DNA from: Candidatus Pacearchaeota archaeon
Lineage (GTDB): Archaea > Nanobdellota > Nanobdellia > Pacearchaeales > GW2011-AR1
Length of the DNA: 49,247 nt
Direction: 5' to 3'
NCBI GenBank assembly: GCA_016204145.1
Contig: JACQLK010000022.1
Coordinates: 1-49,247, forward strand
In this document: positions 17,209-44,982 of the stretch, piece after piece
How the letters are laid out: each line of letters starts with the position of its first letter
Numbering within the stretch: the stretch's first letter is position 1
Made by a program: the position numbers and the translations under genes
Notes under the pieces: generated by a model
The model's input: the letters and a program-made list of their open reading frames with translations, nothing else
Database searches by the model: none
Told to the model about the DNA's origin: nothing

Positions 17209-17406
17209 ATGGCGTTTGGAAGATTTTTTTGGTTTTTGATTTGCCTTGCGTTCGGAGGATATCTCATCAATTATTCGCTGCAATTTTATCCCATAGACGA
17301 AGTTTTTTCCGGAATGAACAAATACGCAATCCTCATCGCCGGAGCGCTTCTAATCCTCGGCGGAATTAACCGCCTTCTTGCGAGAAAACACGGCAATTCT
17401 GAATAA
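17209..17406 (+). CDS. Small two-TM membrane protein
   Basis: TATA-like TTTAAATA about 20 nt upstream; two hydrophobic helices. Confidence 0.65.
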   Translation: MAFGRFFWFLICLAFGGYLINYSLQFYPIDEVFSGMNKYAILIAGALLILGGINRLLARKHGNSE

Positions 17407-17434
17407 GGTTTATATATATAATTTCCATCTTTTT

Positions 17435-22300: not shown

Positions 22301-25300
22301 TACAACAACAAAAAATATCTTTTGACATTGCAGGGCGCGGGTTCTTCTTATGCCATAAACAAGGTTTATCAATACGACGGAGCCGATTCAAATAGAATTT
22401 ATATCAAGCCGGTTGAGCCGGGGGAAGAAAATACAATAAGGGGCGCGTTTTCAAAATTCACAAGATACGATTTAGGATCTTATCAAAATAATTTCATAAA
22501 TCCAAGAGTAAGATATTTTGAAACAGAGCCGTACAAAGGACTGCCCGCAATTGTTCCTTTTGATACGAAAGCCGGATGGTATGTCGCGACAAAGCAAATC
22601 GTCGGCGGGCTTGCGGGAAGCGTTTCAGGGCAGGGAGGAATACGGGCTTATGATGATTCCGGACGACTGACAAGTTTTTATTTGTGCAACGTCGGACAAA
22701 ACGGAAGGGAAGAGTTCAATTCAAATCTCGGCGACGACGTTTGCAGAAGTTTTAATCCGGGTGTTTCGCAACTTCAGGGAACTTTCCAGGGTTTGAGCGA
22801 GAGCGACACAAATCGGATAATGTCCCGTGCTGTGCAGGCGGTGCAGGAAGCATCGACGCAATACAAACCGAGTTTGAGCGCGAGCGGGACGGTAAAAGTG
22901 CTGAATGAATTCATTCCCGTCGGGGAGCCGTCGATAAACACGCCGGACATTCAATGCCAGGATTTTATGTCTCCGAAAGAATGCAATATTTTATTCAATG
23001 TTTGCGATCCTGTTGTTTGTCCCGCGAGCAGATGCAATCTCGGCGGAGCATATAATGTTCCGGATGTAATTCAGTCGGGAATAATCGGAAGCGTTGCATT
23101 ATGTTTGCCAAATGCGAGAGAAAACATCGCGGTCCCAATTTGTCTTTCAGGAGTGAAGGCGGGAATAGACAGTTTTGTTTCCGTGGAGAAAAATTATCGG
23201 GATTGTTTGCAGACAAATCTCGACACGGGGAAGACGGTGGGAATTTGCGACCAGATACACAGCGTTTATCTCTGCGATTTCTTTTGGAGTCAGGCGCAGC
23301 CGATGGCGAAAGTAATTGTTCCAAAAATATTTGAAAAAATTCTCGGGCAAACGGGAAGGGGCGGCGGAGAATATTTGGGAGTTGCAAGCGCATGGGAAAA
23401 TGCGGGAAGGTCGATTGATTACATGACGCAATATTACGGCGCGGCGTCGTTCGAGGCGTTCAGGACGGGAATAATAAAAGAAGTCGGAAACGCTGTTTGC
23501 AGAAATTTTGTATCTGCGGCTTATCCTTCGAACATGAAATTTTTTGATTCATTGATAGAACCACAGTCGCCGCCGCAATATACCGCGTGGTTTTCAGAGC
23601 AGGCATACGCGACGTCGACAAATCCTCCGACTTCAAGATATAAAGTATTTTATCATATTTACGCGGGAGAAAACACAGGACAGGCGGGAAAAAATGCCGG
23701 AGCGTTTTACAGCGTTTATTTGAAATCGCCGAGCGGAAGTTCGTTTTACCAGTATTCTCCGACGCTGAATGTCGCCTCGGGATTTATTTCTCCGGCGGAC
23801 TATGCGTCAGAGACAAAGGATTTCACAGCTCCTTCGGGATACAAGGAACTTTGCATAAACGTGAACGGACAGGAGAATTGCGGATTCAATCAGGTCTCAA
23901 CCGACTTTGGACTGAAATATCTTCAGGACTCGTATGCGCAGAGCCAAATAAATCAGACGAGCATTCAATCGGAAAAGGATTGCGTTTCGGGAACTCCGTT
24001 TAATTTGTATTCCCTTGCAAATCCAAACATTCAGGAAGGAGCGACTCAATTTGTAGACCCTGCAATTTACAATCAGCAAATCGTCCGCGTTTGCTCTACC
24101 GAGAATCCCGGGAAAGGAACCGATCCGCATTCGGGAACAGAGAACAGCAGATGGATTCCCGTCGGAAATTGCGAGCCAACGGGAAAGTTGAAATGTTATC
24201 TCGATACAAAGAGCATCGGCAGCGCGATACAAGGCGCGGGCTTGAGGAACGAAACGCTTCAAGAACTTTCGAGATATTATTCAACGCAATTGCAAAATCA
24301 GACGCAGTTTGATTTCAATTCCGAATTGGAAAAAATAATCAAACTTGACAACAGCGGAAAAATAAGCCACATCACTCCGAGTTTGATTTCAAAAGCTATT
24401 CTCAACTTTCAGAAAGCAAAGTTCCTTTTGCTCAGGGGAAACGCCTACGGAGAAATTGCAAAGGGATTGTTTGAGAAATTGAAATTGACCACAACGCCGA
24501 GCGGAACGACGGCAGCAGAAGGAGTTATTTGCACGCCTGCTCCAGGAATAACTACAACAACTCCTTCAACGTCGGGAACGGGAATATTTAACATTCAAAA
24601 CATTGCATACGAATATCCGGTTTTAACTTTAAATAATCCCGGGTTTTTCGGAGGAAAAGATTATTATTTCAAATATTCAAATCAAAACAAAAATTGGGAT
24701 TGGTATTGGTCAAATGACAACTCGCAATGGACTGTCGTTGACAGTGATAATCTGCCCGAAAGAGGAAGCACATTAAGAGGGTTGGATGTAGACCTTATTG
24801 TAAATTTAAGGGGAGTTTCTTATGATGATGGAGTTGTAAATATAATTTCCACTGCGAAGAGTTTGCAAAACGATTTGTCAACGGAAAATGTCAAATTTTC
24901 AAACAGTGACAATTTATTCACGGTTTCCCAGAAAGAAAGCGGATTGCCAAGCAGCATTTATCTGAAATATGAAAATAGCAAATGGTTTTGGACATACAGT
25001 TCAACACAAAACGACTTGATTGATTTGTCCGACTTCACAAATTCCAAACTTAGCGTTGTGACAAATTACAACAAGCAAATATTTGCAAGCATTGCTGGAA
25101 AAAGTTATGAGGAAGGAGTCAAGATGATTTTCAGCATTGATGTCAAGGAGAAAATTATTTCAACAACCAGTGAAAGTTTGCCGAGCAATTCTGAACTGTC
25201 GAAAATTCCGGACAGCGGAGTTATTTGCACGCCTGTTCCAGGAACAACTACAACAACTCCTTCAACTTCGGGAACGGGAACATTCAATATTCAAAATATT

Positions 25301-26731
25301 GCATATGAATATCCGATTTTAACTTTAAACAATCCCGGATTTTTTGGAGGACTGACGCAAAAAACATATTACTTCAAATATTCAAATCAGAACAACAACT
25401 GGGCGTGGTATTGGTCAAATGACAATTCGCAATGGACTTCTGTTGACAGCAGTAATTTACCGACGAGAGCCAGCAATTTAAGAGGATTGGATACGGATCT
25501 TATCACAAACTTAAGGGGGGTTTCTTACGAGGACGGAGTTGCACAAATAATTTCAACGGCAAACAGTTTGCAAAATGATTTGTCAACAGAAAATGTCAAA
25601 TTTTCATATAGTGATAATTTATTTACAATTAATCAAAAAGAAGGCGGACTACCAAACAGCATTTATCTGAAATATGAAAACAGCAAATGGTTCTGGACAT
25701 ACAGTTCAACGCAAAACGACTGGATTGATTTGTCAGATTTCGCGAATTCAAAATTGAGCGTCGTGACAAATTATAACAAACAAATATTTGCAAGCATTGC
25801 CGGAAAGAATTTTAGAGACGGAGTAAAAATTATTTTCAGCATTGACGTAAAACAAAAAATAGTTGGAGCTAGCGGCGCTTCTGGAAGTCAGAAGTTAAGC
25901 AACTTGAATCTCGGAACTTGCACAACACGACAAGAATGCCAGAAAGCAATCGGCAACGGAATAATAAAAATCGCAAGAGATGTAAAAAACGCGGCGAACA
26001 TTCCCGATATTGATTCAACAATAAAAGCAGAAGGAGTCGCGGAAAATTTTGAATGTCTTGTACTGCAAATAGCAATGCAGGAAAGTTCGCTGCAGCATTG
26101 CCAAAATATTCAGCAAAATTTGGACCCTGTTTACTGCGACGGAGCCAAGGACAAAGTAAAAACGTTGAGCACTGCAAATGAAAATAGTTTTGGGGTTATG
26201 CAAATTAACACAAATGTTCATGCGGTTCCCGCGCAATATTTTGAAGAAGGGGTTTATTATGCTTCTTATAATATTTTTATTAAAAGCTATCTTGCCTATG
26301 GGCAGGAAGGAATGGCATTTAGACCGACTGGGACGACTTATTCAGGATGGAAAGCCGCGATAAGAAGTTACAATGGATGGGGTTACGGCGGAGATAATAA
26401 TTATGTTGAAAAAATAACAACAGATAGAAAACTTGAAATTCAGCAAATGTTTTCAGACGTTTGCGGCGGCTCAAATGTTGCGCCGATAAAAACTTTCCCG
26501 CAAGTTCCCGCGCCTTGGAGCGTTCAATCCGCGCTTGATTCCATTCAAACAAAGACGGGAAAATATTCAAATAATAAAGAATTCATAGACCAATTGTATC
26601 AGGACGGGATTTTGACGCAACCGGAATATATTGAAATCAGCGGCGACGGGTTTTTTAATCTGGAGGAGGACATGAATTACGTGAAAAATATTTTGCAGAA
26701 TAAGTTGGTTGAGCAGAGGAAAGGAACTTAA
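19346..26731 (+). CDS. Giant secreted Cys-rich protein (2461 aa) with internal duplication and C-terminal lytic transglycosylase (SLT/lysozyme-like) domain
   Basis: Signal peptide; Cys-rich core; IAMQES, SFGVMQIN, AIRSYNG, YVEKI motifs at ~26050-26420. Confidence 0.75.
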   Translation: MKIFNFAWIFLFVIIFAGFASADYFLSSPQITMPGSAFNYGGNLPLGPAFNSNSCGAGQDFIIQVAPFGCSPSVVRSDLLEEQNVPVFCQLMATKLNPLINVQSIDSISFTGNYPNEVAGIGFNPARAALSSAGQTFLNSPVTNNIGYAVIVLKQQQNESSMPEFVSGNLTANIRYNIQNAFGVGAANYFVPELTEEEWAQRYAQYGFMNGRGFVKADNVNADSATISLYLDKTNRLSTFNLRKGETSGDAYLPGFYCAASLNVRLEGVENPNTRARIEINGEIIQAGVGERFLNNACVVSSPPQKRGMSESVDISCRTDSGNERINLIIAPRIKLNVDNTEKAFGVGDYIGEAADKKSIYLGYIGTKGDSRDKKDLFVYFISMPQRKDKLSNDEISRTNTIVNLIRYNKITTIGVIDVPLNAFKNFAGASNLVYEFFKGNEFVYLTSSENEFSFGGKKIKLVDFVDGQDINFPDAQTSENYKKAMSDYREIINKYPGEKEPNSQEAFGKLALIEAIKLASSVEQKKTLRELCDEFSQKYPDAKAEAVNHCDSVRISSSESATRKLLINGNVKEISFDGIYQPSLEEYSAEVKVTYPDGRTSDIFTLTKDQTIILNETKNEYVQLVSLSDNYATIQINLVPTTISEAYTAPFIASVKNINKGIQETFGSGYTFTLTQINLKKVAKVSIIPNIKNSGTTGNFSFTVGIEKRAIQLTPDQIRERIQSLNESISEWQGTSEKVGQVVKGFNAACLAVGTAITVKNLFQGFDGKAIARQEVMRSPGGWIDSCTQKVNEKQFSTVDSCLLKYSDDIEKDVGIVEGIIKNQKPITNENANIRLAEIRNSLGDKIENPNKKGEFIELSENSDAGEAFTNEGIKNGRITLSQARDLERLNSELNSAASQQDKELAQRKIYSILSQIKANSEQLSLYNSIQSELNKANIGEIGVVAYGGKNAIEGSYTGGIIKGDKIIGAGISDGKDYPAQVVVYNNKKYLLTLQGAGSSYAINKVYQYDGADSNRIYIKPVEPGEENTIRGAFSKFTRYDLGSYQNNFINPRVRYFETEPYKGLPAIVPFDTKAGWYVATKQIVGGLAGSVSGQGGIRAYDDSGRLTSFYLCNVGQNGREEFNSNLGDDVCRSFNPGVSQLQGTFQGLSESDTNRIMSRAVQAVQEASTQYKPSLSASGTVKVLNEFIPVGEPSINTPDIQCQDFMSPKECNILFNVCDPVVCPASRCNLGGAYNVPDVIQSGIIGSVALCLPNARENIAVPICLSGVKAGIDSFVSVEKNYRDCLQTNLDTGKTVGICDQIHSVYLCDFFWSQAQPMAKVIVPKIFEKILGQTGRGGGEYLGVASAWENAGRSIDYMTQYYGAASFEAFRTGIIKEVGNAVCRNFVSAAYPSNMKFFDSLIEPQSPPQYTAWFSEQAYATSTNPPTSRYKVFYHIYAGENTGQAGKNAGAFYSVYLKSPSGSSFYQYSPTLNVASGFISPADYASETKDFTAPSGYKELCINVNGQENCGFNQVSTDFGLKYLQDSYAQSQINQTSIQSEKDCVSGTPFNLYSLANPNIQEGATQFVDPAIYNQQIVRVCSTENPGKGTDPHSGTENSRWIPVGNCEPTGKLKCYLDTKSIGSAIQGAGLRNETLQELSRYYSTQLQNQTQFDFNSELEKIIKLDNSGKISHITPSLISKAILNFQKAKFLLLRGNAYGEIAKGLFEKLKLTTTPSGTTAAEGVICTPAPGITTTTPSTSGTGIFNIQNIAYEYPVLTLNNPGFFGGKDYYFKYSNQNKNWDWYWSNDNSQWTVVDSDNLPERGSTLRGLDVDLIVNLRGVSYDDGVVNIISTAKSLQNDLSTENVKFSNSDNLFTVSQKESGLPSSIYLKYENSKWFWTYSSTQNDLIDLSDFTNSKLSVVTNYNKQIFASIAGKSYEEGVKMIFSIDVKEKIISTTSESLPSNSELSKIPDSGVICTPVPGTTTTTPSTSGTGTFNIQNIAYEYPILTLNNPGFFGGLTQKTYYFKYSNQNNNWAWYWSNDNSQWTSVDSSNLPTRASNLRGLDTDLITNLRGVSYEDGVAQIISTANSLQNDLSTENVKFSYSDNLFTINQKEGGLPNSIYLKYENSKWFWTYSSTQNDWIDLSDFANSKLSVVTNYNKQIFASIAGKNFRDGVKIIFSIDVKQKIVGASGASGSQKLSNLNLGTCTTRQECQKAIGNGIIKIARDVKNAANIPDIDSTIKAEGVAENFECLVLQIAMQESSLQHCQNIQQNLDPVYCDGAKDKVKTLSTANENSFGVMQINTNVHAVPAQYFEEGVYYASYNIFIKSYLAYGQEGMAFRPTGTTYSGWKAAIRSYNGWGYGGDNNYVEKITTDRKLEIQQMFSDVCGGSNVAPIKTFPQVPAPWSVQSALDSIQTKTGKYSNNKEFIDQLYQDGILTQPEYIEISGDGFFNLEEDMNYVKNILQNKLVEQRKGT
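24521..25860 (+). repeat. Intragenic tandem duplication, period 696 nt (232 aa)
   Basis: GVICTP.PG.TTTTPSTSGTG begins at 24521 and 25217; both copies end in IFSIDVK.KI. Confidence 0.95.
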
Positions 26732-32720: not shown

Positions 32721-33080
32721 TTATTTTACAAATTCCACATCTTCCAAATTTTGGAATTCTTTGTCTCCTGTTAAAAATTTTATTCCCAAATCTTTCGCCT
32801 GAAAATAAGAGATGCAATCCGTCATTGATAATTTTTTCTTCTTATTTTTATGCCTGAATTCCATGGCCTTCTCTATAGTTTCTACGTCAAAATCTTTAAC
32901 AAATTTATTATATTTATCAAGATATTTGCTGGCGGTTTCCACACCATAGTTTGAAATTAACCAATAAGCTAATTCGGTTAATATAAATTTATTAATGATT
33001 ATTTGAGAATTAATGTAAAATTTGTAATTTTCATTGCCTTTAATAATCTCTATTATGGCATAAGTATCAAAAAGAAACAT
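32721..33080 (-). CDS. vapC: VapC (PIN domain) toxin
   Basis: FDTYAIIE, LTE, LSMTDCISY, LTGDKEF; ATG at 33080 just after the antitoxin stop. Confidence 0.9.
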   Translation of the reverse strand: MFLFDTYAIIEIIKGNENYKFYINSQIIINKFILTELAYWLISNYGVETASKYLDKYNKFVKDFDVETIEKAMEFRHKNKKKKLSMTDCISYFQAKDLGIKFLTGDKEFQNLEDVEFVK

Positions 33081-33081
33081 T

Positions 33082-33312
33082 TTAAAATTCACTATCCAAC
33101 TCTTTATCAATCTCTTCCATAATTTCCCGTGTTGTTTTTTTTGTTTTTAATGTTCCAAACATTTCTCCAAGAACATTTTTTGTTTTTTCTTTATTCATCA
33201 AAATAGTCACTTCATCCCCCTCTTTAATTTCAGTTGTTTCAATAGTTTTTTGAGGCACAACTATCCCGAATGAATTTCCCCATTTTCTTAATTTTGTTTT
33301 TATTTCAATCAT
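33082..33312 (-). CDS. vapB: AbrB/MazE-type antitoxin
   Basis: KLRKWGNSFGIVVP..IKEGDEV swapped-hairpin motif. Confidence 0.9.
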   Translation of the reverse strand: MIEIKTKLRKWGNSFGIVVPQKTIETTEIKEGDEVTILMNKEKTKNVLGEMFGTLKTKKTTREIMEEIDKELDSEF

Positions 33313-33400: not shown

Positions 33401-33471
33401 GTTAATACATATATAATAAGTATTTTTCTAATATTACATACATTTATAATAGTTAATACATACATAGTAAG
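33401..33471 (+). promoter_or_regulatory. Pair of 20-bp direct repeats upstream of the giant surface gene
   Basis: GTTAATACATATATAATAAG (33401-33420) and GTTAATACATACATAGTAAG (33452-33471), 18/20 identical. Confidence 0.5.
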
Positions 33472-33472
33472 G

Positions 33473-36400
33473 ATGGGAGGGACTCGTTTAGCAAAAGCCA
33501 GAATAGCGGAGCTTAAGAAAAGGATAGCTCATGCAGAGCAAAAGAAAAAAGAATTTTCAGATTATTTGCGCGGATTGAAACAAAAATATCATCGCGGCGA
33601 AATTTCATATTCGTCTTTCCTTGAACATTTTTATCAAAAGCGAAACGGGCTTAATCTGAAGGAGTGGCTTCTTCATTTTGACGACTATATCAAGGATTGC
33701 AAAAAGGAAATAAGAAAAGAGAGAATAAAACTCCTTGGGAACTATTCTGTGTTTGCATTTTTGTCTTTAGTTTTTATTTCAATTTTCTTCTTGGCTTTTT
33801 CCAATATGAACATCGGCTTCACGGGCTTTGCAATTCAGGAAGGAGAAAATATTTCCGCAAATCAATCGATTTCAGAAGAAATAAACGGAGAGGTTCAAAA
33901 TGAAACGAGTCCTTCCCATCAGATTGGACAAGAACCTCTCCCGCCTTCTGAGAACATAACTGCAAACGAAAGTTCTATTTCAGGAAATTTCTCTTCGGGA
34001 AATTTAACAGAACAAAATGCGACAGAAATTAATCAAACGCAAATCAACGAAACGCAAAATATTTCCGCGGAAAACGAAACAATTCCGATTCAAAACATCA
34101 CAAATCAAACGACTCAAAACATTGCAGAACAGAATATAACGCAACAAAACGTCTCAATCGTTGAAGATGCCACAATAAACACGACACAAGTAACTCCAAA
34201 AATAAAACTTGGCGAGAAAGTAAAATGGAAAAAAACAATTTCCAGTAATGAAATCGGAAACGCCACAATAATTCTCCCGAAAAATTCAGAAAACATAACA
34301 ATAACAAAAATAAAAGAAAACAAAGAAGAAGACATAACTTCTTCAAGCTCCATAACGGGCGCGGTTGTCGGCGGTTCAAGAGAAAATTTCATTTTCCGAC
34401 TTTTAAAAAACATTTTTGGAAGAATAACGGGAAGAATCGTTGATGAAATCGCGAGGCAAAATGTAAGCGTTGAGGTTGAGATTGAAATTGACGAGATTCA
34501 AGCAGAATATGAAGTTGAATATGAGACGCCCGCGCCTTATTCTATTGAAGAAGACATTGCTTTTGGGAAAAGAGTAAAAATTTTCGGTCCCGACGCGGTT
34601 CATTATGAAAACGTTCTCGCTTTCACGAATATTTCTGAAAATTTGAATTTGAAAAATCCAAGCAAGATAAAAATAAAATGGATTGAGCAAAATATTTACA
34701 TAAATCCGGATTCTGTTCTTGACTCGGATGAAAACGGAATTTACGATTATGTCGAGTGGAATGTTCCGAGTTTGAGCGAGCAGACGTTTGAAATAATTGT
34801 AATCACGAAAGCCGAGCATCTTGATGAAAATTATAATTTTGTTTCCGACATTTATGAACAGGTTAAAGAACTGGATGGGATTTGGAGCGAAGAAATTCCA
34901 GATGCACATTATGTTCGCGTAACGTTTGAAAAAAATCTTACAAATGAAAATGATATAACAATTTATCCGCGAATTACAAGCGGAAATCCGACTATTGAGG
35001 TTTATGAGGAAAACGGAAATGATTTGGTTGCAGAATTTTCTTCGCTGAATGAAAACGAATACAATAAAGTTTTTTTGACGAATCTTATTTCTGAATCTCA
35101 AAATGTTTTCGATTTGAAAGTCGTTGGTGGAACAATTCAAATAGATTACATTGTTGACCCTGTAGAAGTCGGATTTTTTGACGATTTTGAAGGAACATTG
35201 GCAAAATGGGGAACGACGTCTTGGGTTGTGACTACAGCGCAATTTAAAAACGGCGCGCAGTCTCTGCAATCTGCAAACGGGCAGGAAGGAGACATCATCA
35301 CAGACCCGTTTGACACATCCAACGCAACTTCAATCAATATAAGTTTTTGGTTCAGAGACAACAATTTGGATGCGGGCGATATAGATTTTTATTTTTTTAA
35401 CGGCACAAGTTCCGCTTATGAGTTGCAGACAGAAACTCTTGAAACTGAAACGGCAGAAGATATTTGGACATTTAAAAGTTTCACAACTTCAAACAGCGAA
35501 TTCTTCATAAGCAATTTCAGCGTAAGATTCAATGCTAATTTGGGAAACGGAGAAAATTTCTGGGTTGATGACTTTTCAGTAAACAAGACGACTGTCGTCG
35601 TGGATTCAACATCTCCAGATGTCACAATAAACGTTCCACAGAACACGACATATCATGTGCATTTTGATTTGCCATTTAATTTCAATGTTTCTTTAAATGA
35701 AGCTGGAAATGCATTATATTCCCTTGACAATGGTTTTACAAATATTACAATGAACACAACAGACAATTTGAATTTTAATGCGACTCTTCTGGATTTGACT
35801 GAAGGAAGTTACACTTTCCAAGTTTATGCAAACGATACTGCTGGAAATGCAAATTATTCGGAAAGTGTTGTTTTTGATTTAGTCATGGATAATATGCTTG
35901 TCAACGGAACAACCGTTGCTCCAGACGGAATGCCGACAAATACCACTTTTGTAATTATAGATGAATCTTCTTCAAATGTTGTTTACAATGAAACAAACGA
36001 TACACACGAGACGTTGATTCCTTTGAACTCAACTTACACAATTGAAGTTCTTCCTTTGGAAATAGATTCCGTAGACAAAGTTGAATTTAATGACGTTAAT
36101 TTTTCTGAAATAAATGATACTGTCACAAGCATTGTTAAAATAAATGAAAACGAAACTCTTGGAAATTTCAGTACTGTATTTTCCGTAAGACCGCAGTTTG
36201 AAACATTTGAAAACGGAACCTTATTTTTTACCGCGAAAGCGAACGCTTTGTTCAGATGCGGAGAGTGGAATTACACTATGGAATCTTGCCAGGGGAACTG
36301 GAGTTTGTTCATGAACGATTTGATTCCAGGAGAAGAATACAATTTCACATTTTCCGGAACAAGGGGTTACGGAATAATAAACATTACAAATGCGACACAT

Positions 36401-39400
36401 CTTGACTCAAACAGGAGTTACATATCCGACATTTATGACTATGTAAAAGAATATGACGGCAATTGGTCTGAAATAATTCCCGACGGGCATTACGTTCGCG
36501 TCGTCTTTCAAGAAAATCTGACCTCGGGCAACGATATTACAATCGTGCCGAGAAATCTTTCCGGAGATGCGAGAGTTGAGGTTTATGAAAACGGGCAGGA
36601 CGTTTTGCTTTCGGAATTTTATCCTTTGATTGAAGGAGAATTAAATCAAATTCTTCTTACAAATCTTACAGGAACGCAAGATGTATTTGACTTGCGTGTT
36701 TCGGGGAACGATGTTGAATTTGATTACATCGTCGACCCAAACATCACTGTCATTGATACTCAATCCAAAGACGTTGGGATAACTCCGATTAACAGCACCG
36801 CATTTGTAATAGTCTGGAATAATATCTCCTCTGATGTTGCTTCAAACGGTTCATTCTTTAAAATAATGACAACAACAGGAAGCATTGTCCTTGATACTGT
36901 TAAAGTAGACGAAAATAATCCGAGAGTTTCCGTCGCCGCCCTCAATTCAACAACATTTGCCCTTGTTTATGTGAACGCATCAACAGCGGATGAATTAAGA
37001 ACAGTATGGACTACTGACGGAACGAAAGTTTTTGGTCCGACAACAGATGACGGCTCTATAGGGGTTGTTGGTTGGGATGTTTCTGCGACGGCGATAAATG
37101 AAACAGCTTATGTTTCCTGCTATGTTGACATGGGAACAGACGGAGATGGGGACGTTCACATAATAAATTATAATGCCGCATCGTCTGAAATAGGGCTTAA
37201 CGGAGACATTGACGCCAACCAAAATTATGCAAATCTTTTTGATTGCGCGACCATAAATTCAACGGCGTGGGCGGGAGTAACGTATGATGCAGTAGACGCC
37301 GATGTCGGATTGGCGGTTTATAATGACAGGGGAACTGCGATAACTGCGCTTACTCTCATAGATACAAGTGTAGGAACAGGCGGAGCGCAGGTTTCTGTTA
37401 CTGGATTGAATGGCGAGAATTTTGCAATGGTTTGGTTTACAAATCTGAGCACTGCAGACACAAACATAAGCGCAACGGTAAGAACTGCAAACAATGGCGT
37501 TGTAACGGCAAAAACAAGAATTGTAAACATGCCCGGAAATTGGACAAGAATTGATGCTGCAACAGTGGCGAATGACACGGGAGATTATCTTGTTCTCGGC
37601 TGGATTAATTTAACAACAAAAGGTGTTTTGGCTCAAACATTCAAACAAGATTTGACTCCCGCTTCCGGAATAATAACAATTGATACCGCCATGAACAGGG
37701 AATACCCTTTGTTTGACATAATTGGAAAAACAACCACGACATCTTTATGCAATGAGACATTTGCTATTGCCTATACAAATTTCACAAATTCTACTGTTGT
37801 AAAAACATATTGGATGAATGGAAGCATTTGGAATGGAGTTTGTCCTGCCCCCGCGGACAACACAAAACCCGCAATTTCAATTTTTTCTCCCGCAAACTTG
37901 ACAAACACGACGGATAATTTGATTGATATTCTCGCGACATATTCCGACGCCGGCGGGCTTTCTTCCGCGTGGTATAACAATGATACTCATGCCGTGGCAA
38001 ACAAATCTCTTGGAACCGTCGGTTCATTTACAAATATAACAAATCTGACTTGGGGCGAGGGCGGACACAATGTGACGGTTTATGTGAGCGACACTGCGGG
38101 AAATGAAAATTGGACTTCTGTAACATTTGAAGTTGATTCAATAAAGCCCGCGATAGAAATTGTTTCTCCTGCAATAAATAATTCAAACAGTAGCGATACG
38201 GCTCTTGATATTACTTATACTACATCCGATGCGCATCTGTTTAATTTTTGGTATGCAAATGATACGACAACGGGCGCAAACAAATCCCTTGGTGTCTTGG
38301 GAACATCATTTAACATCACGAATATAACTTGGGGCGAAGGAAAACATAATGTTACAATTTACGCAAATGATACTTTTGGAAACGTAAATCAAACAAGAAT
38401 CAGCTTCACGATTGATTCAACAAAACCTCTTGTAACAATAGCAAATCCGACGACAAACAATACAAACACAAGCGACAATCTTCTCGATATAAATTACATA
38501 CCGACGGACACTTTTACGCAAATAGATTCTGCATGGTATACCAACAATTCAGGAAATATAAACAAATCCCTTGGAACACTCGGCTCTTTGACAAATATTT
38601 CAAACATAACTTGGGGCGAAGGAAAACACAACGTTACAATATACACAAATGACACCGCCGGAAACGTGAATTTCACGACGATAAGTTTTACTGTTGACAC
38701 CGTAATCCCTGGAATTTCAATTGATTCCCCAAGCAACCTGACAAATTCAAGCAATCCTGGTCTTGATGTAAATTTCATAGCATCTGATTCCGGTTCCGGG
38801 TTGTTCAATTTTTGGTATGCAAACGACACCTATTCTGTTGCAAACAAATCCCTTGGTGTCTTGGGAACATCATTTAACATCACGAATATAACTTGGGGCG
38901 AAGGAAATCATAATGTAACGATCTGGGCAAATGATTCTGCTGGAAATTACAATTTTGCGTCTGTTACATTTGAAGTTGATTCAATAAAGCCCGCGATAGA
39001 AATTGTTTCTCCGACGGGGAACAACACAAACACAAGCGACACCGCTCTTGATGTTACTTACACGACTTCGGATTTGCATCTTTTCAACTTTTGGTATAAC
39101 AATGATACTCATGCCGCGGCAAACAAATCTCTCGGTGTCTTGGGAACTTCATTCAACATCACAAACATAACATGGGGCGAGGGAAAGCATAATGTCACAA
39201 TTTATTCAAACGACACGTTTGGAAATGTGAATTTCACGACGACAAGTTTCACAATAGATTCAACTCTTCCTTTGATAACAATAACAAATCCCGCAAGCAA
39301 TAACACAAACACAAGCGACAATGGTTTGGATGTAAATTATGTTGCAACCGACACTTTCACGCAAATCAGTTCGGCATGGTATACAAATAATTCTGGGAAC

Positions 39401-41473
39401 ATAAACAAATCTCTCGGTGTTTTGGGTTCTTTGACAAATATTTCAAACATAACATGGGGCGAAGGAAAACACAATGTAACGATTTACACAAACGATTCGG
39501 CAGGAAACGTGAATTTCACGACGATAAGTTTTACAATCGACACAATACAACCAACAATCTCCATCGCATCTCCGTCAAATAATTCAAACAGCAGCGATAC
39601 CGGTTTGGATGTTCTTTACATTCCAACAGACGCGGGAAGCGGTTTGTTTAACTTCTGGTACAACAACGACACTTATACTGCCGCAAATAAAAGTTTAGGT
39701 GTTTTAGGGACTTCATTTAATATCACAAATCTCACATGGGGCGAGGGAAAACATAATGTCACAATCTGGGCAAACGATTCTGCTGGAAATTACAATTTCG
39801 CGTCGATAAGTTTTACGATTGACACTATAAATCCTGATTTAAATATAACTTATCCGATTAACAACTCGGTTGTTTCCGATATTAATGCAGACATAAATTA
39901 CACTCGCTTGGATTCAGGAAGCGGTTTGTTTAATTGTTGGTATTCAAATGACACATATCTTGCAAATACAACGCTTTCAAATTGTGAAAATGTAACCGCG
40001 GTTATATGGGGGGAAGGGGCGCACAACGCCACAATTTGGGCGAATGATTCAAGTGGAAATTTAAACAAGACATCTGTGACTTTTACAATATCCCTAAATA
40101 ATCCCCCTGAGATAAGAAATATTTACAATGACACCGCGACCATAATTGCCGCCGCTTCCGGAATCAGTTCTGGACCTTTGAACACTTCATTGATAGTTAA
40201 CTTTTCTGTTTATGACGCTAACGGCGTTGCAAATATGGATAACTCAACAGCGACGGTAAATTTCTCAAAATCAGGCGAGGCATTGAGACAAAGTCCGACT
40301 TGCGATCAGGTTGAAGTAGGCACAAATGTCGCAAATTACAGTTGCAATGTAACAATGTCTTGGTATGACGGGGCGGGAACCTGGGCGGTTCAGGCGTTTA
40401 TTTCAGATTTGGACAGCAACGACGCTAAAAACAATTCCGCGAATTTCTCTGTTGGCGAGACAACAGGATTTGAATCCGGTTCTTTGACTTTTCCATTCTT
40501 ATCTCCGGGGTTAAAAAATCAAACCTCTGCTGTCGCGTTACGGCTGAACAATACAGGAAACAAGAACATGGCTGCAAACACGACGCAGGTAAACGCGACA
40601 AACCTTCGCGGAGAGATAACCTCTGCATTTGCCATATGGTCCGGAAACATTTCTACAAGTTGGGATTCAACAACGCTTGAGGCGTGCGACACAAGCGGCG
40701 GCGATGGAATAAGGGCAAATAATATGTCTTCCGGCAACTATGTAAATATCACCACTGCTAATTTGACAAAAGGAAATTATTTTGTCAATGACGGAAGCAC
40801 GGGACAGGAGGACTTTTATTTCTGCATAAAAACAGTCGGAGCTGAATTGACTTCGCAGCAATATTCCACTGCAAACGAAGGCGCGTGGACAATAAGAATC
40901 CTTCTCGCATTTGTCGCAATTCCAAGAAAGAGGAAAAAGAAAACTGAAAAAGACAAATTGCTCGAAACAATCTCTCTGCTTGTTGACGAATTCAAGGAAA
41001 AGCACCGATTAAGCAAAGAAGACACTATGAATCTTGTCATAAAAGAAATAAGAAAAAAATATAAAATAAACAGAAGTGAAATTCTTGAACTTTCTGAGGT
41101 TAAGAAAATTTCAATTCCCGCGACAATATTCTCAGAGAAAATGGGAATTTTGGAATCGCTTGTGAAATACATGAAGGAAAATCTTGAAATGAGCTACAAG
41201 GAAATTGCCGAGGAAATCAACAGGGATGAGAGGACAATTTGGACATCTTACAAAAACGCCGTCGAGAAACAAAAAGAAGTCATAGAAGAAACCGAAACAA
41301 ACATAACAATTCCCCTTTCAATTTTCAAAGACAGCAAATCCACAATACTTGAATCAATTGTTGTTTATTTGAAGGAAAACGGAATGAGATATTCGGAAAT
41401 CGGCGAATTGCTCAATCGGGACCAGAGAAACATATGGACTATTTACGACAGAGCCGCAAAGAAAAAAAGATAG
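33473..41473 (+). CDS. Giant membrane-anchored Ig-repeat surface glycoprotein (2666 aa) with C-terminal tandem HTH-like domains
   Basis: Basic N-terminal domain, TM at about aa 92-112, sequon-rich body, eight WGEG.HN.T...ND..GN repeats, two ES.V.Y.KEN..Y.EI...NRD.R.IWT.Y units. Confidence 0.8.
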   Translation: MGGTRLAKARIAELKKRIAHAEQKKKEFSDYLRGLKQKYHRGEISYSSFLEHFYQKRNGLNLKEWLLHFDDYIKDCKKEIRKERIKLLGNYSVFAFLSLVFISIFFLAFSNMNIGFTGFAIQEGENISANQSISEEINGEVQNETSPSHQIGQEPLPPSENITANESSISGNFSSGNLTEQNATEINQTQINETQNISAENETIPIQNITNQTTQNIAEQNITQQNVSIVEDATINTTQVTPKIKLGEKVKWKKTISSNEIGNATIILPKNSENITITKIKENKEEDITSSSSITGAVVGGSRENFIFRLLKNIFGRITGRIVDEIARQNVSVEVEIEIDEIQAEYEVEYETPAPYSIEEDIAFGKRVKIFGPDAVHYENVLAFTNISENLNLKNPSKIKIKWIEQNIYINPDSVLDSDENGIYDYVEWNVPSLSEQTFEIIVITKAEHLDENYNFVSDIYEQVKELDGIWSEEIPDAHYVRVTFEKNLTNENDITIYPRITSGNPTIEVYEENGNDLVAEFSSLNENEYNKVFLTNLISESQNVFDLKVVGGTIQIDYIVDPVEVGFFDDFEGTLAKWGTTSWVVTTAQFKNGAQSLQSANGQEGDIITDPFDTSNATSINISFWFRDNNLDAGDIDFYFFNGTSSAYELQTETLETETAEDIWTFKSFTTSNSEFFISNFSVRFNANLGNGENFWVDDFSVNKTTVVVDSTSPDVTINVPQNTTYHVHFDLPFNFNVSLNEAGNALYSLDNGFTNITMNTTDNLNFNATLLDLTEGSYTFQVYANDTAGNANYSESVVFDLVMDNMLVNGTTVAPDGMPTNTTFVIIDESSSNVVYNETNDTHETLIPLNSTYTIEVLPLEIDSVDKVEFNDVNFSEINDTVTSIVKINENETLGNFSTVFSVRPQFETFENGTLFFTAKANALFRCGEWNYTMESCQGNWSLFMNDLIPGEEYNFTFSGTRGYGIINITNATHLDSNRSYISDIYDYVKEYDGNWSEIIPDGHYVRVVFQENLTSGNDITIVPRNLSGDARVEVYENGQDVLLSEFYPLIEGELNQILLTNLTGTQDVFDLRVSGNDVEFDYIVDPNITVIDTQSKDVGITPINSTAFVIVWNNISSDVASNGSFFKIMTTTGSIVLDTVKVDENNPRVSVAALNSTTFALVYVNASTADELRTVWTTDGTKVFGPTTDDGSIGVVGWDVSATAINETAYVSCYVDMGTDGDGDVHIINYNAASSEIGLNGDIDANQNYANLFDCATINSTAWAGVTYDAVDADVGLAVYNDRGTAITALTLIDTSVGTGGAQVSVTGLNGENFAMVWFTNLSTADTNISATVRTANNGVVTAKTRIVNMPGNWTRIDAATVANDTGDYLVLGWINLTTKGVLAQTFKQDLTPASGIITIDTAMNREYPLFDIIGKTTTTSLCNETFAIAYTNFTNSTVVKTYWMNGSIWNGVCPAPADNTKPAISIFSPANLTNTTDNLIDILATYSDAGGLSSAWYNNDTHAVANKSLGTVGSFTNITNLTWGEGGHNVTVYVSDTAGNENWTSVTFEVDSIKPAIEIVSPAINNSNSSDTALDITYTTSDAHLFNFWYANDTTTGANKSLGVLGTSFNITNITWGEGKHNVTIYANDTFGNVNQTRISFTIDSTKPLVTIANPTTNNTNTSDNLLDINYIPTDTFTQIDSAWYTNNSGNINKSLGTLGSLTNISNITWGEGKHNVTIYTNDTAGNVNFTTISFTVDTVIPGISIDSPSNLTNSSNPGLDVNFIASDSGSGLFNFWYANDTYSVANKSLGVLGTSFNITNITWGEGNHNVTIWANDSAGNYNFASVTFEVDSIKPAIEIVSPTGNNTNTSDTALDVTYTTSDLHLFNFWYNNDTHAAANKSLGVLGTSFNITNITWGEGKHNVTIYSNDTFGNVNFTTTSFTIDSTLPLITITNPASNNTNTSDNGLDVNYVATDTFTQISSAWYTNNSGNINKSLGVLGSLTNISNITWGEGKHNVTIYTNDSAGNVNFTTISFTIDTIQPTISIASPSNNSNSSDTGLDVLYIPTDAGSGLFNFWYNNDTYTAANKSLGVLGTSFNITNLTWGEGKHNVTIWANDSAGNYNFASISFTIDTINPDLNITYPINNSVVSDINADINYTRLDSGSGLFNCWYSNDTYLANTTLSNCENVTAVIWGEGAHNATIWANDSSGNLNKTSVTFTISLNNPPEIRNIYNDTATIIAAASGISSGPLNTSLIVNFSVYDANGVANMDNSTATVNFSKSGEALRQSPTCDQVEVGTNVANYSCNVTMSWYDGAGTWAVQAFISDLDSNDAKNNSANFSVGETTGFESGSLTFPFLSPGLKNQTSAVALRLNNTGNKNMAANTTQVNATNLRGEITSAFAIWSGNISTSWDSTTLEACDTSGGDGIRANNMSSGNYVNITTANLTKGNYFVNDGSTGQEDFYFCIKTVGAELTSQQYSTANEGAWTIRILLAFVAIPRKRKKKTEKDKLLETISLLVDEFKEKHRLSKEDTMNLVIKEIRKKYKINRSEILELSEVKKISIPATIFSEKMGILESLVKYMKENLEMSYKEIAEEINRDERTIWTSYKNAVEKQKEVIEETETNITIPLSIFKDSKSTILESIVVYLKENGMRYSEIGELLNRDQRNIWTIYDRAAKKKR
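34795..36738 (+). repeat. Duplicated ~120-aa domain (about 34795-35160 and 36374-36738)
   Basis: A.HLD.N....SDIY..VKE.DG.WSE.IPD.HYVRV.F...DYIVDP present twice. Confidence 0.85.
37856..40090 (+). repeat. Eight tandem Ig-like repeats (~94 aa) with 843-nt higher-order period
   Basis: WGEG codons start at 38051, 38330, 38612, 38894, 39173, 39455, 39737, 40007. Confidence 0.92.
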
Positions 41474-42584
41474 CTTGCTCGAGGGCGAAGAAAAAATCTA
41501 CCGCGAATAGATGATAAAATTTAACAATAGTTAATTCATTCCAAATTACCCCCCAATTGAAAAGAATAATGTTTAAAAAGAAAAAAAAATTAGTGTAAAT
41601 CAAGCGAGGTTGAAGTATTAAATGCATAAAATTAGGGGGGATAGAAAAATTTTTCTTTTGGCAATTTTGATAATCATGTCACTTTTAATTCCTTTTTCTT
41701 CCGCGGGATTTATTGACGATGCATGGGGAAAAATTACTGGAAAAGCGGCGCAATCGGTGAGTGTTAATATTACCATCGGCGTGCCTGAAATTCGAAATGT
41801 TTACAACAGCACTGCGACAATAATCGCCGCAGGCACAGGATTGAGTTCCGGTCCTGTAAATACTTCTTTAATAATTAATTTTTCTGTATATCTTGGCACA
41901 GGGGTGGCAAACATGGACAATGCGACAGCAACAATAAATTTTTCAAAAGCATCAGAAACATTGAGACAAAGTCCGACTTGCGATCAGGTTGAAGTGGGAA
42001 CAAATGTCGCAAATTACAGTTGCAATGTGACGATGTCTTGGTATGACGGGGCGGGAACATGGGCTATTCAGGCATTTATTTCAGATACCGGCGGAAACTC
42101 AGGAAAAAACAATTCCGCGAATTTCTCTGTTGGCGAGACAACAGGATTTCAAATGGGCGCATTAGGATGGGTTTCATTGTCTCCGGGCAGCACCAATCAA
42201 ACAGCCAGCGCCGCTTTGCGGCTGAACAATACGGGAAACAAAAACATGTCTGCAAACACGACGCAGGTAAACGCGACAAATCTTCGGGGAGAGACAGCGG
42301 CAAATAGATGGATTTCTGCAGGAAATATTTCGGTAAGCTGGGATGCAACAACGCTTGAGGCGTGCGACACAAGCGGAGGCAATGGAATTGCGGCAAACAA
42401 CATGAGCAACGGCACTTTTATAAACATAACAACAGCGAATCTGACAAAAGGACACTATCCTACAAATGATGGAAGCACGGGACAGGAAGATTTTTACTTT
42501 TGCATTAAAACAATCGGAAGCGAATTGACCTCGCAGTCATATTCGACGGCGGCGTACGGGCCTTGGATGGTTCAGATACTTCTA
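40106..42584 (+). repeat. 801-bp direct repeat pair (40106-40906 and 41784-42584)
   Basis: Same-length 267-aa domain PEIRN...ILL; long identical DNA tracts such as CATTGAGACAAAGTCCGACTTGCGATCAGGTTGAAGT. Confidence 0.92.
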
Positions 42585-42674
42585 ACGCCTTTGGTTTTAT
42601 TAAACATAAGAAGAAAAAATAAAAAGAATTATCGGAAATTAAATATGAATAGAGTTAAAAACTTTATCCACTAA
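41622..42674 (+). CDS. Secreted protein, stand-alone paralog of the last extracellular domain of 33473..41473
   Basis: Signal peptide; 267-aa shared domain; hydrophobic then basic tail. Confidence 0.85.
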   Translation: MHKIRGDRKIFLLAILIIMSLLIPFSSAGFIDDAWGKITGKAAQSVSVNITIGVPEIRNVYNSTATIIAAGTGLSSGPVNTSLIINFSVYLGTGVANMDNATATINFSKASETLRQSPTCDQVEVGTNVANYSCNVTMSWYDGAGTWAIQAFISDTGGNSGKNNSANFSVGETTGFQMGALGWVSLSPGSTNQTASAALRLNNTGNKNMSANTTQVNATNLRGETAANRWISAGNISVSWDATTLEACDTSGGNGIAANNMSNGTFINITTANLTKGHYPTNDGSTGQEDFYFCIKTIGSELTSQSYSTAAYGPWMVQILLTPLVLLNIRRKNKKNYRKLNMNRVKNFIH

Positions 42675-42682
42675 ACGTCAAA

Positions 42683-43249
42683 ATGAAAAAAATATGCCAT
42701 AAAAAGGTTTTTATATTTTTAGCAACATTGATTTTGTTTAGCAGCAGCGTTCTTGCTTTTGCAGTATCTTCACAATATTATGAAGGCAATCCGTTGTATC
42801 TTCAACCGGGCGAGACCAGAGATGTAAAAATAATGCTTCAAAATCATGCCGGAACAGAAGATGTAAGCATAAAAACAGAAATTAGCGAGGGCAAAGAGAT
42901 TGTTGAATTGAAAGATTCTAATGATATTTTTTTGGTTCCACAAGGAGGAAAGACAGACGTGTACTTTAAAATCAGCGCTCCTTTTAATGCCAAGAAAGGA
43001 GATGTTTTCCCAGTTACTCTGATGTTTGCATCCTCTACTGTCGGGGGAGAAGATCCGATAGGGCTCAGCGGCAGCATTGGAAAGGGATTTAACGTTGTAA
43101 TCGGAGAGCCGTCTGATTTTGAGGCAAAAGAAGCCAAATTTTCGCCAAAAGTTATATACGGATTAATAGGAGTTGTTTTGGTGGTTATCGCATTCTTAAT
43201 CGCAAGAAAAAAGTTTTCAAAGAAAAATAAGAAAACCAACAAATTTTAA
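42683..43249 (+). CDS. Secreted Ig-like protein with C-terminal TM anchor
   Basis: Signal peptide, L.PGET motif, TM plus lysine tail. Confidence 0.75.
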   Translation: MKKICHKKVFIFLATLILFSSSVLAFAVSSQYYEGNPLYLQPGETRDVKIMLQNHAGTEDVSIKTEISEGKEIVELKDSNDIFLVPQGGKTDVYFKISAPFNAKKGDVFPVTLMFASSTVGGEDPIGLSGSIGKGFNVVIGEPSDFEAKEAKFSPKVIYGLIGVVLVVIAFLIARKKFSKKNKKTNKF

Positions 43250-43272: not shown

Positions 43273-44982
43273 ATGAAAAAAGAGGTTTTATTTGTTCTTT
43301 TAGCCGCAATAGTATTCTTAACAATAATTTATCAAACGAAGGCCGAAAATAATGTTATAACCGGAGAATCGGTTACGGGAGATGTTACAAATATTCTTGT
43401 TTTGAACATAACCGTCTCGGGACCGCCAGGATTGACTCTTCTGTCCCCAAAAAATCATACTTATTTCTCAAGCCAAAATTTGGTTTTGAATTTTTCAGTA
43501 AGCGACGAAGAATGGATAAAATATAGCATTGATTCCGCCGCCAATGTGACAATAACGGGAAACATAAAATTCAATACAAGCGAAGGAAGCCACAGCTTGT
43601 TTCTTTATGCGAACAACAGCAACGGACTTACAATAGAAAACGTGACATTTTTTGTAAACTCAAATCAAATTAAAATTAATTATACGAAATATTCCAATTC
43701 TTACAAGGGAGAATCTACCGATTTTAATGCTTCGTCTTATTCAGAGATACAAAACATATCGGGAATAATTTTAGAGCATACAAGTTTTGGGAAAATTTTG
43801 TTCAACGAAATTATTAATGTAACTGACGATGCGGATTTCAGCGATAACACGGTTGATTTGGACAATTATATTAATATTTCTTTAAATAGAACTTATGTGA
43901 ATTCAACCGCACTGCCGAATTTCAACAAATCAGCGACGCTGACTTTGCATAATTTGACTTTCACAAATCCGAGGGTTTTGCGCGACGGTTCTGTTTGTTC
44001 TTCAACAATTTGCACAGAGCAGAGTTATTCCGGAGGAACTTTTGTTTTTAATGTCACGGGATTCAGCGTTTACAGCGCGGAAGAAACGCCTTCCGAAGAT
44101 ACACCTTCAGGAACAATCTCTCCGGGAGGAGGCGGCTCTTCGGGAGGATCTTCAGGCAGCAGCAGCGGAGTCCTATCAAAAATCCTTCCGACAAAAAGGG
44201 GAATTGAAATAAGCGAAGAAGATGTAAAAGTAAAATTAAGGCCGGGGCAGGTCGTGACAAAAAAAATCACAATAACAAACAACGATTACAAAAAATTAAG
44301 CGTTAACATTGAAAATCCGCGACTGAAGGATTTTATCATAATCAAAGAGCCGGCTTTTGGTTTGGTTCCGGGAGAGTCAAAAGAAATTCTAATGGACATA
44401 ATTGCGAGAGAAGACGCAAAGCCGGATTTGTATCTTGGATATTTGCTTGTGAAGACGGAATTTGAAGAAAAGCAAATCCCTGTCGCAATTGAGGTCGAAT
44501 CCTTAAAATCATTGCTTGATGCAAGAGCGGAAATATTAAAAGAATACAAAGAGATTCTTCCGGGAGAAGAAATTCTGGCAGAAGTGAAATTGTTCAATCT
44601 CGGATATACCGGAAGAGTTGACGTCTCCATGGAATACATAATAAAAGATTATGACGGAAATGAAATCAGCATCAAGCACGAAATTCTTGCAATAGAAACG
44701 CAGACAAATTTTATCCGGGAAATAAGCATTCCTAAAAATGCAAAATACGGAGAATATGTCCTTTATGTCCGCGCGACTTACAACGGCGAAATCGCCAGCG
44801 CTTCCGATGGATTTGAAGTCGTGCAATACAAGGTCACGAACAAAGAAAAGATATTTATAGCCGCGATTATTGTTTTAACAATATTATTGGCTTTGTTTGC
44901 ATATTACGAAATAAGGGAAAAAACAAATTCCGTAATGAGCATAAGAAAAAAAGTCGGCGTAAAAGAGATGATAAAAAAATAA
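43273..44982 (+). CDS. Membrane-anchored surface glycoprotein
   Basis: Signal peptide, FNVTGFSVY domain, Gly/Ser linker, PGE-type Ig-like domains, C-terminal TM. Confidence 0.78.
   Translation: MKKEVLFVLLAAIVFLTIIYQTKAENNVITGESVTGDVTNILVLNITVSGPPGLTLLSPKNHTYFSSQNLVLNFSVSDEEWIKYSIDSAANVTITGNIKFNTSEGSHSLFLYANNSNGLTIENVTFFVNSNQIKINYTKYSNSYKGESTDFNASSYSEIQNISGIILEHTSFGKILFNEIINVTDDADFSDNTVDLDNYINISLNRTYVNSTALPNFNKSATLTLHNLTFTNPRVLRDGSVCSSTICTEQSYSGGTFVFNVTGFSVYSAEETPSEDTPSGTISPGGGGSSGGSSGSSSGVLSKILPTKRGIEISEEDVKVKLRPGQVVTKKITITNNDYKKLSVNIENPRLKDFIIIKEPAFGLVPGESKEILMDIIAREDAKPDLYLGYLLVKTEFEEKQIPVAIEVESLKSLLDARAEILKEYKEILPGEEILAEVKLFNLGYTGRVDVSMEYIIKDYDGNEISIKHEILAIETQTNFIREISIPKNAKYGEYVLYVRATYNGEIASASDGFEVVQYKVTNKEKIFIAAIIVLTILLALFAYYEIREKTNSVMSIRKKVGVKEMIKK

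Follow-up and report, generated by a model that had tools for sequence, protein, structure and literature searches.

The 49,247-nt stretch of DNA analysed here (the window; contig JACQLK010000022.1 of a Candidatus Pacearchaeota archaeon) contains a gene for a giant surface protein with a pair of helix-turn-helix (HTH) units at its C-terminus, and we propose that this C-terminal tail may act on the promoter of its own gene. The genome comprises 757 kb in 34 contigs and is 88% complete. The host is an archaeon, with TFB and RadA encoded in the window, and the nearest database proteins to the giant protein carry the labels Pacearchaeota or Nanoarchaeota. The coding frame occupies nt 33473..41473 of the plus strand and runs from an ATG start through 2666 amino acids (aa) to its stop codon, with no internal stop. 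An earlier note on this DNA had described a frame with a basic N-terminal domain, a transmembrane (TM) helix, a sequon-rich Ig-like ectodomain, the cluster RKRKKK and an HTH pair, and this frame is indeed intact at 33473-41473.

The basic N-terminal domain (aa 1-91; 33473..33745, plus strand) contains 25.3% Lys plus Arg and 0 sequons. AlphaFold2 predicts a helical hairpin with a predicted local distance difference test score (pLDDT) of 88-96 over aa 11-80 (helices 2-40, 46-54 and 62-110), the second helix of the hairpin continuing into the first membrane helix. The relatives of the giant protein also keep this domain, the first helix and then a TGF-like motif. Among 14 members no Pfam family was common to more than 2, and the best match in a profile search of the PDB was an RNA polymerase coiled coil (E 0.011). 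Foldseek yielded generic helical hairpins alone (HlyD, AcrA and FadA, E >= 0.23), with no anti-sigma entry among the matches listed, and the best score in an Atlas search was 0.79, under the lead level. The first membrane helix (aa 92-110; 33746..33802, plus strand) has a Kyte-Doolittle value of 2.42 over 19 residues, the maximum of the protein. It is followed by the ectodomain (aa 111-2469; 33803..40879, plus strand), which is built of Ig-like repeats and contains 157 N-x-S/T sequons at a density of 6.66 per 100 aa, with 4.0% Lys plus Arg. Big_13 matches 8 stretches (E 1.6e-23), Big_3_4 is also found in Pfam (5.2e-9), and the OmpL47-type domain of NCBIfam matches 6 stretches (3.9e-17). About eight near-alike tandem repeats of ~95 aa each (Big_13 / OmpL47-type) lie at aa ~1450-2200, a likely place of length variation. 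The membrane-proximal domain (aa 2189-2478; 40037..40906, plus strand) has a copy in the product of the next gene, 41622-42674, with 72% identity over 290 aa.

A short second hydrophobic stretch, GAWTIRILLAFVAIP (aa 2470-2484; 40880..40924, plus strand), was located by hydropathy and is presumed to span the membrane. Directly after it comes the polybasic cluster RKRKKK (aa 2485-2490; 40925..40942, plus strand), presumably a stop-transfer signal on the cytoplasmic face. The hydropathy of the stretch is 1.69 over 15 residues but 1.07 over 19, so the caution of the earlier note that it is short for a TM helix was justified. The same arrangement, an uncharged stretch of 9-22 aa (median 12) and then a polybasic cluster, is present in 83 of the 96 family members, and the stretch usually contains a proline. 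The last 182 residues contain 1.1 sequons per 100 aa and 22% Lys plus Arg, the corresponding values for five housekeeping proteins encoded in the window being 0-0.76 and 12-19%; the switch from the ectodomain type to the cytoplasmic type of composition falls exactly at the second hydrophobic stretch. In addition, the paralogue encoded by 41622-42674 ends in an equivalent hydrophobic stretch and basic tail, as an ordinary C-terminal anchor. With 182 residues beyond the stretch, the extreme C-terminus carries no sorting signal of the archaeosortase / PGF-CTERM type, and a search of the 88%-complete genome for an archaeosortase (PF09721) gave no match. Based on hydropathy and composition, we consider an N-in/C-in topology with both ends in the cytoplasm probable. 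The second span is the weakest link of this topology and is not proven because the hydrophobic stretch is short. The DNA-binding side would thus be cytoplasmic, as the earlier note had placed it: the polybasic stop-transfer cluster behind the hydrophobic stretch, the cytoplasmic-type composition of the tail and the anchor of the paralogue argue for this orientation, and the short second span argues against it.

The tail begins with linker helices (aa 2491-2543; 40943..41101, plus strand; model residues 33-81, pLDDT 52-66) that match the N-terminal part of free-standing regulators described below. HTH unit A (aa 2544-2602; 41102..41278, plus strand) and HTH unit B (aa 2609-2666; 41297..41470, plus strand) were delimited by hmmsearch, and the two repeats reported earlier at about 41114-41270 and 41309-41467 both lie inside these units. 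In an AlphaFold2 model computed from a 20-sequence alignment, both units have pLDDT block means of 82-97, unit A lies above 90, and each unit is composed of a short strand and three helices; ahead of the units, the hydrophobic stretch is modelled as a helix and the linker as helices of lower confidence. Pfam Sigma70_r4_2 matches unit A at aa 2567-2598 with 26.7 bits, just above the cut-off of 25.7.

Structural superposition of HTH unit B on the archaeal repressor EnfR (PDB 8hno) revealed a Z-score of 8.3 and a root-mean-square deviation (RMSD) of 1.1 Å over 47 residues with 32% identity, and a profile comparison gave an E-value of 0.0011. Unit B also superposes on sigma-28 (1rp3, Z 8.0), SigW domain 4 (6jhe, Z 7.6) and NarL (1je8, Z 7.1), and on many sigma region 4 and NarL/LuxR-type domains with Z 6.4-8.1; for NarL, QscR, RcsB and GerE the values are Z 6.4-7.3 and RMSD 0.9-1.9 Å over 45-48 residues. 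The GerE Pfam model was not listed for the giant protein at E <= 1. A Foldseek search with the whole tail model gave no match at E <= 0.001, the weak rows being mostly sigma factors and bipartite HTH domains. Neither sigma region 2 (Sigma70_r2) nor a Pfam family of the OmpR/PhoB-type winged helix was found in the giant protein at E <= 1, and the sigma70-ECF model TIGR02937 reached 10 bits against a cut-off of 42.9. Pfam, the AlphaFold2 model and structural superposition therefore agree with the earlier note that the C-terminus is an HTH pair, and the tail appears to be a complete transcription regulator, consisting of linker helices and two HTH units of the sigma-region-4/LuxR type.

The fusion of this module to a surface protein is genuine. 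Contigs assembled from groundwater runs, all from one study, span the junction with 0-1 letter differences and no insertions or deletions (X2, 40724-41663; X4, 40712-41050; X3, 40844-41038), and nt 40880-40960 are also spanned by run X1, possibly the source. Residues 2440-2666 have counterparts in 95 further proteins (1466-4666 aa) from Pacearchaeota/Nanoarchaeota, with E-values from 2e-106 to 4e-26. An assembly chimera or a frameshift at the junction, which the earlier note had wanted confirmed in reads, is ruled out by the junction-spanning contigs together with the 95 other giant proteins that share the C-terminal module. The ectodomains of these relatives differ (beta-helix, LamG, Big_13 or DUF2341). 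Two HTH units are present in 79 of the 96 proteins, four in 16 and three in 1; four units are arranged as two pairs, and P0004-P0012 are among the relatives with more than two units.

Within the order, 37 of 151 genomes contain the module, which usually closes a frame of 1000-4500 aa. When 1.84 billion representatives clustered at 50% identity were searched with the profile, 2229 of these clusters matched at E <= 0.001 and 994 reached E <= 1e-30; the module is nearly always C-terminal in them. Most of the short matches appear to be fragments: of the 9 short database proteins inspected, 5 begin mid-sequence without a methionine. An apparent free-standing HTH frame in genome G073 was rejected, as it proved to be the terminal part of a gene divided between two contig ends and no gene of its own. 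In the sole other genome of the same genus, locus L042 (G140:C9:1-4200, minus strand) shows the promoter motif described below and a very similar N-terminus; its frame ends after 975 aa, 932 nt ahead of the contig start, the HTH module was not found in genome G140, and the frame may be a broken or truncated orthologue. In the genome of the giant gene itself, a genome-wide search found the module once and no second copy.

In other orders of the class the module takes the form of a separate gene. Of the 251 genomes sampled from the phylum, 136 (G386 and G387 included) contain it at E <= 1e-10, and outside this order it is found mostly in frames of ~120-360 aa. The free-standing frames align to the profile from positions ~45-60 up to 208. 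The 12 loci inspected hold 13 tandem-HTH frames of 167-202 aa, in which a scan marked no hydrophobic segments; each of them overlaps or directly adjoins the beginning of the gene that follows on its strand. For 9 of these frames, a protein of 761-2890 aa with 41-112 sequons is encoded one or two genes further on, and for the remaining 4 the next gene is small (116-264 aa). The products of the next genes have a hydrophobic segment near the N-terminus in all cases save the 81-aa one of L058, and the giant partner in L049 begins with the same N-terminal domain as the fused proteins (hhalign probability 93.4%, E 2.4e-7, 120 columns). L059 (G331:C1, minus strand) combines both forms in a single transcription unit: a separate tandem-HTH frame of 183 aa overlaps a surface-protein gene of 1669 aa, at whose own end a fused pair is encoded; this dual arrangement shows how the loss of a stop codon in an array of such pairs could create the fusion. 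In a tree of HTH pairs the 20 fused rows, all of one order, form one side of a branch with support 90/84.

The promoter of the giant gene contains a 17-nt imperfect palindrome, with the consensus TACATACATAATAAGTA and the core form TACnTA-N5-TAnGTA, which flanks a TATA-like box at -70 and -19 from the ATG. The TATA-like box TTTATAA (33443-33449, plus strand) was read by eye. The distal operator-like site (17-nt core 33406..33422, plus strand, at about -70; matrix window 33403-33422) is one arm of direct repeat D2 and scores 29.1 bits, the best match in the genome. The proximal operator-like site (17-nt core 33457..33473, plus strand; matrix window 33454-33473) is the second-best match with 22.3 bits; it is situated between the TATA-like box and the start codon, with the A of the ATG as its last base. 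On the two sides of the box are the arms of a 23-nt direct repeat, spaced 51 nt apart, and a half copy of the motif, TATTACATACAT (33432..33449, plus strand), is joined to the box itself as the third copy of a 12-mer. This 12-mer occurs three times in the promoter and nowhere else in the genome, its backwards control once. The weight matrix was built from 26 sites in promoters of relatives, with the window excluded; its third-best match in the 757-kb genome is 9.9 bits, and the matrix read backwards reaches 16.3.

The same layout is found upstream of 19 full-length relatives from other genera: one copy of the motif runs up to the start codon, the ATG is preceded at ~30 nt by a TATA-like box, and another copy is located ~52 nt further up. 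Two or more sites are present in 14 of the 18 relatives with upstream sequence, and the spacing is 51-52 nt in 10. Across the 151 genomes of the order, 26 contain motif pairs by hand count, 21 of them among the 37 genomes with the tail, and the pairs sit at the predicted gene start wherever the gene is complete. Of the other 5 genomes with pairs, three (G041, G052 and G056) have family genes cut by a contig end. At L035 (G065:C3, minus strand, nt 302-925 of the turned locus) the pair has a spacing of 34 nt and is followed by a 191-aa frame with a C-terminal anchor and no family-type N-terminus. The motif also varies with the second HTH: relatives with the sequence RDQRNIWT(I)YSRA have the canonical site, and those with KDPRNI(Y/W)TLYSRA have a variant or other upstream sequence without it. 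Before the free-standing HTH frames, sites above 20 bits occur in 3 of 13 cases (L050, L053 and L054) and sites of 10-16 bits in 3 more. No site above 10 bits was found before the HTH frame in the other 7 of the 13 split cases, some of which show, by eye, lineage-specific repeats around a TATA-like box. In two genomes of one genus, an identical single near-match to the motif is located on another contig than the giant gene (G021:C3:35144-35160 and G111:C3:40720-40736), which could be a second target or merely a conserved sequence.

Taken together, the tail is most likely a dedicated regulator of surface-protein genes which, in this order, would have become part of the product it regulates. The likely target of the tail is confined to the promoter of the giant gene, so the protein probably governs its own synthesis while seated in the membrane. 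The earlier note had suggested that the HTH pair relays surface contact to transcription. The link to transcription has become likely, given the conserved operator-like repeat in the gene's own promoter and the free regulator gene elsewhere. The relay of surface contact is not supported, and neither is a general contact sensor with a wider response: the promoter of the giant gene is the sole detectable target in 757 kb, which points to a self-regulating loop. Self-regulation as proposed here is well supported by the comparison, and for the complete proposal, a membrane-tethered self-regulator of the giant surface gene that is probably a repressor, we judge the chances to be somewhat better than even.

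Based on these features, we propose the following mode of action. The product would be a two-pass giant glycoprotein with a basic helical N-terminal domain and a tail of ~180 aa, both in the cytoplasm. Once the finished protein is seated in the membrane, its tail would bind the two 17-nt sites of its own promoter. The two HTH units in the tail might act as a built-in pseudo-dimer, and two unlike units would fit an imperfect palindrome, one on each half-site. The promoter would probably be within reach of the tail, as the tail is tethered, the cell is tiny and the long gene is probably inserted during its transcription. The message is apparently leaderless, its start having been read by eye. 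Binding would probably silence the promoter, as the proximal site overlaps the position at which RNA polymerase is loaded. In the archaeal repressors MDR1, Phr and LrpA, a protein bound between the TATA box and the transcription start blocks the loading of the polymerase, and owing to these repressors, which bind at such positions, negative feedback is favoured. The distal site may stabilise the binding or act positively; 51-52 nt correspond to about five helical turns.

Several observations weigh against this proposal. The second hydrophobic stretch, at ~13-15 residues (family median 12 uncharged), is short, and in G331 it has only ~10 residues. The sites of the weight matrix were gathered with a loose pattern written after the window's own promoter had been seen, and the palindromic symmetry of the motif is modest, its column correlation of 0.46 being matched by 75 of 2000 column shuffles. 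Genome G066 (69% complete) has a motif pair and a family-type 735-aa gene without the tail, and in G065 (95% complete) a pair stands before a small unrelated frame and the tail was not found. In addition, the match between HTH groups and motif variants is confounded by descent because the groups are also clades, and since the motif accompanies the gene, another factor could recognise it.

A more elaborate version, to which we assign a low probability, is a cis-acting device for dosage or contact, in which each finished adhesin counts itself by closing its own promoter. Coupled transcription, translation and membrane insertion of the 8-kb gene would hold the locus at the membrane; the tail, made last, would emerge beside its own promoter and shut it; and pulling, clustering or host-contact shedding of the ectodomain would displace or release the tail, so that the promoter opens again. 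The conserved N-terminal hairpin beside the tail could be the lock. A complex prediction for the N-domain (aa 1-88) and the tail (model residues 30-207) scored 0.02 against a mark of 0.32, which is uninformative either way, and a locking of the tail by the N-domain is pure speculation. If such a device existed, it would link host attachment directly and mechanically to adhesin supply, in a tiny symbiont with almost no other signalling genes.

Instead of acting at the membrane, the tail might be released, as in Notch, SREBP or RsiW: an intramembrane protease would cut the second span, for example upon host contact or shedding of the ectodomain, and the freed soluble tail would regulate the same operator. 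This is consistent with the short, usually proline-containing hydrophobic stretch, and with the equivalence of the tail to a regulator that is soluble in other orders. A rhomboid (91.3 bits) and a site-2 protease of the M50 family (96.8 bits) are also encoded in the genome; however, their presence is uninformative because both families match in 14 of 14 control genomes. Moreover, membrane-bound regulators elsewhere act without release, according to the main text of Demey et al. (2023, PMC10269533). Release appears unlikely.

We regard it as similarly unlikely that the tail has another job altogether, such as tethering the DNA or nucleoid at the membrane or holding a partner protein, the motif being read by another factor or forming part of a strong family-specific promoter. 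The two genomes G065 and G066, in which the motif is present and the tail was not found, would fit this explanation, as would the 3' half of the motif, which by eye resembles a TATA box, and the protein contacts that sigma region 4 also makes in bacteria. Against it, the free-standing homologues head the same type of operon, some of them with the motif, which is the usual layout of an autoregulator; and the genome of the giant gene contains neither the motif elsewhere nor a second copy of the module.

Still less probable is an external tail, in which the hydrophobic stretch does not cross the membrane and the HTH pair stays outside, attached to the surface through the hydrophobic and polybasic segment, and binds extracellular or host DNA. 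The stretch is below the length of a canonical helix in this protein (15 aa), in the family as a whole and in G331. But six to ten consecutive Lys/Arg residues right after a hydrophobic segment are a classical stop-transfer signal, the tail does not have the sequon density seen in all exposed parts, the corresponding segment of the paralogue serves as its terminal anchor, and a scan marked no hydrophobic segment in the free-standing homologues. Finally, a bacterial-type sigma factor, or its region 4, recruiting RNA polymerase is highly improbable: Sigma70_r4_2 does exceed its cut-off, databases name some relatives 'sigma24 family protein' and Castelle et al. (2021) report 'sigma-70' genes in DPANN, but the tail is not a sigma factor because region 2 was not found, the sigma70-ECF model stays far below its cut-off, the organism has archaeal machinery with TFB encoded in the window, and the tail holds two tandem region-4-like units and nothing else.

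The giant gene heads a small island of surface-protein genes. The paralogue gene immediately downstream (41622-42674, plus strand) encodes 350 aa with a signal-peptide-like start, the C-terminal hydrophobic anchor with its basic tail, and no HTH; no Pfam family was found in it at E <= 0.001, and it looks like a recent duplication of the membrane-proximal domain of the giant protein. The next two genes, 42683-43249 and 43273-44982 (plus strand), are also predicted to encode surface proteins, each hydrophobic at the N-terminus and ending in a hydrophobic anchor and basic tail; the second contains 17 sequons, and neither has a Pfam family at E <= 0.001. On the other side, a PIN-domain gene (32721-33110, minus strand) overlaps a MazE-like antitoxin gene (33082-33312, minus strand). 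Both are divergent to the giant gene, with which the pair shares a 160-nt intergenic region. A second giant frame of 2461 aa lies at 19346-26731 (plus strand), preceded by a 652-aa frame at 17378-19336 (plus strand), and no Pfam family matched either of them at E <= 0.001. Castelle et al. (2021) describe a lytic-transglycosylase domain in DPANN proteins that reach 3000 aa.

No description of the fusion or of the 17-nt motif was found in the literature searched, which covered few supplements. DPANN archaea live attached to other cells and have genomes under 1 Mb with few recognisable regulators. The family amounts to about a thousand or more clusters at 50% identity, and it offers a testable circuit of a defined protein tail, a 17-nt site and a promoter. 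In addition, the automatic sigma-factor names of these genes are corrected by the present analysis, because region 2 was not found.

The closest counterparts are the free-standing tandem-HTH proteins, which have the same module of linker and two HTH units, the same type of partner (a cytoplasmic helical N-domain, a membrane helix and a sequon-rich ectodomain) and, in some cases, the same motif upstream. There the regulator is separate, apparently soluble and encoded 5' of the surface gene, whereas here the module is fused 3' behind the second span. In Woesearchaeota and Pacearchaeota, 'sigma-70' genes without anti-sigma partners are described by Castelle et al. (2021), where Sigma70_r4 is given for 19% and K03086 for 49% of the members of fam00359. 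This family possibly corresponds to the free-standing tandem-HTH form. The nearest solved HTH to unit B is that of EnfR (TON_1525) from Thermococcus onnurineus, an archaeal repressor that acts on a pseudo-palindrome in the promoter. EnfR forms soluble homodimers in which each chain has a single HTH, and its site measures 36 bp (PMC10570040); the giant protein, in contrast, has two HTH units per chain behind an anchor and a 17-nt site. Two tandem HTH units per chain also read adjacent parts of one site of ~20 bp in the Tc3 transposase (1u78) and SETMAR (7s03); both appeared as weak Foldseek rows for the tail (E 0.21 and 0.43), and no relationship is claimed.

SigW-RsiW, SigE-RseA and SigI-RsgI are pairs of an extracytoplasmic function (ECF) sigma factor and a membrane anti-sigma factor. 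As in these pairs, a region-4-type HTH is coupled, through a fusion or the order of genes, to a single-pass membrane protein whose N-domain is cytoplasmic and whose sensor lies outside, and region 4 of SigW, SigK, CnrH and sigma-28 superposes on HTH unit B with Z 7.0-8.0. Unlike them, the system described here has no detectable region 2, belongs to a host with TFB/TBP and has an N-domain that is a plain helical hairpin.

Transmembrane transcription regulators are known in archaea from ArnR/ArnR1. They are defined by a predicted DNA-binding domain and at least one predicted membrane region in the main text of Demey et al. (2023, PMC10269533), in which the words DPANN, Nanoarchaeota and sigma have 0 occurrences. 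The giant protein has both parts, the predicted HTH pair and the helix at aa 92-110, and is a real, conserved and apparently undescribed variant of such regulators. Like ToxR, TcpP and CadC, which are thought to act from the membrane, it unites a DNA-binding domain, membrane span(s) and a part outside the cytoplasm in one polypeptide. However, its outside part is a giant adhesin-like glycoprotein of ~2360 aa instead of a small sensor, and its DNA-binding part is a C-terminal tandem pair of the sigma-4/LuxR type rather than the N-terminal winged helix of ToxR and CadC. Two spans are presumed here, in contrast to the single span of the ToxR/CadC type, and the sole detectable target is its own promoter. 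The idea of a membrane-bound transcription regulator would thereby be widened to giant adhesins that carry their own regulator.

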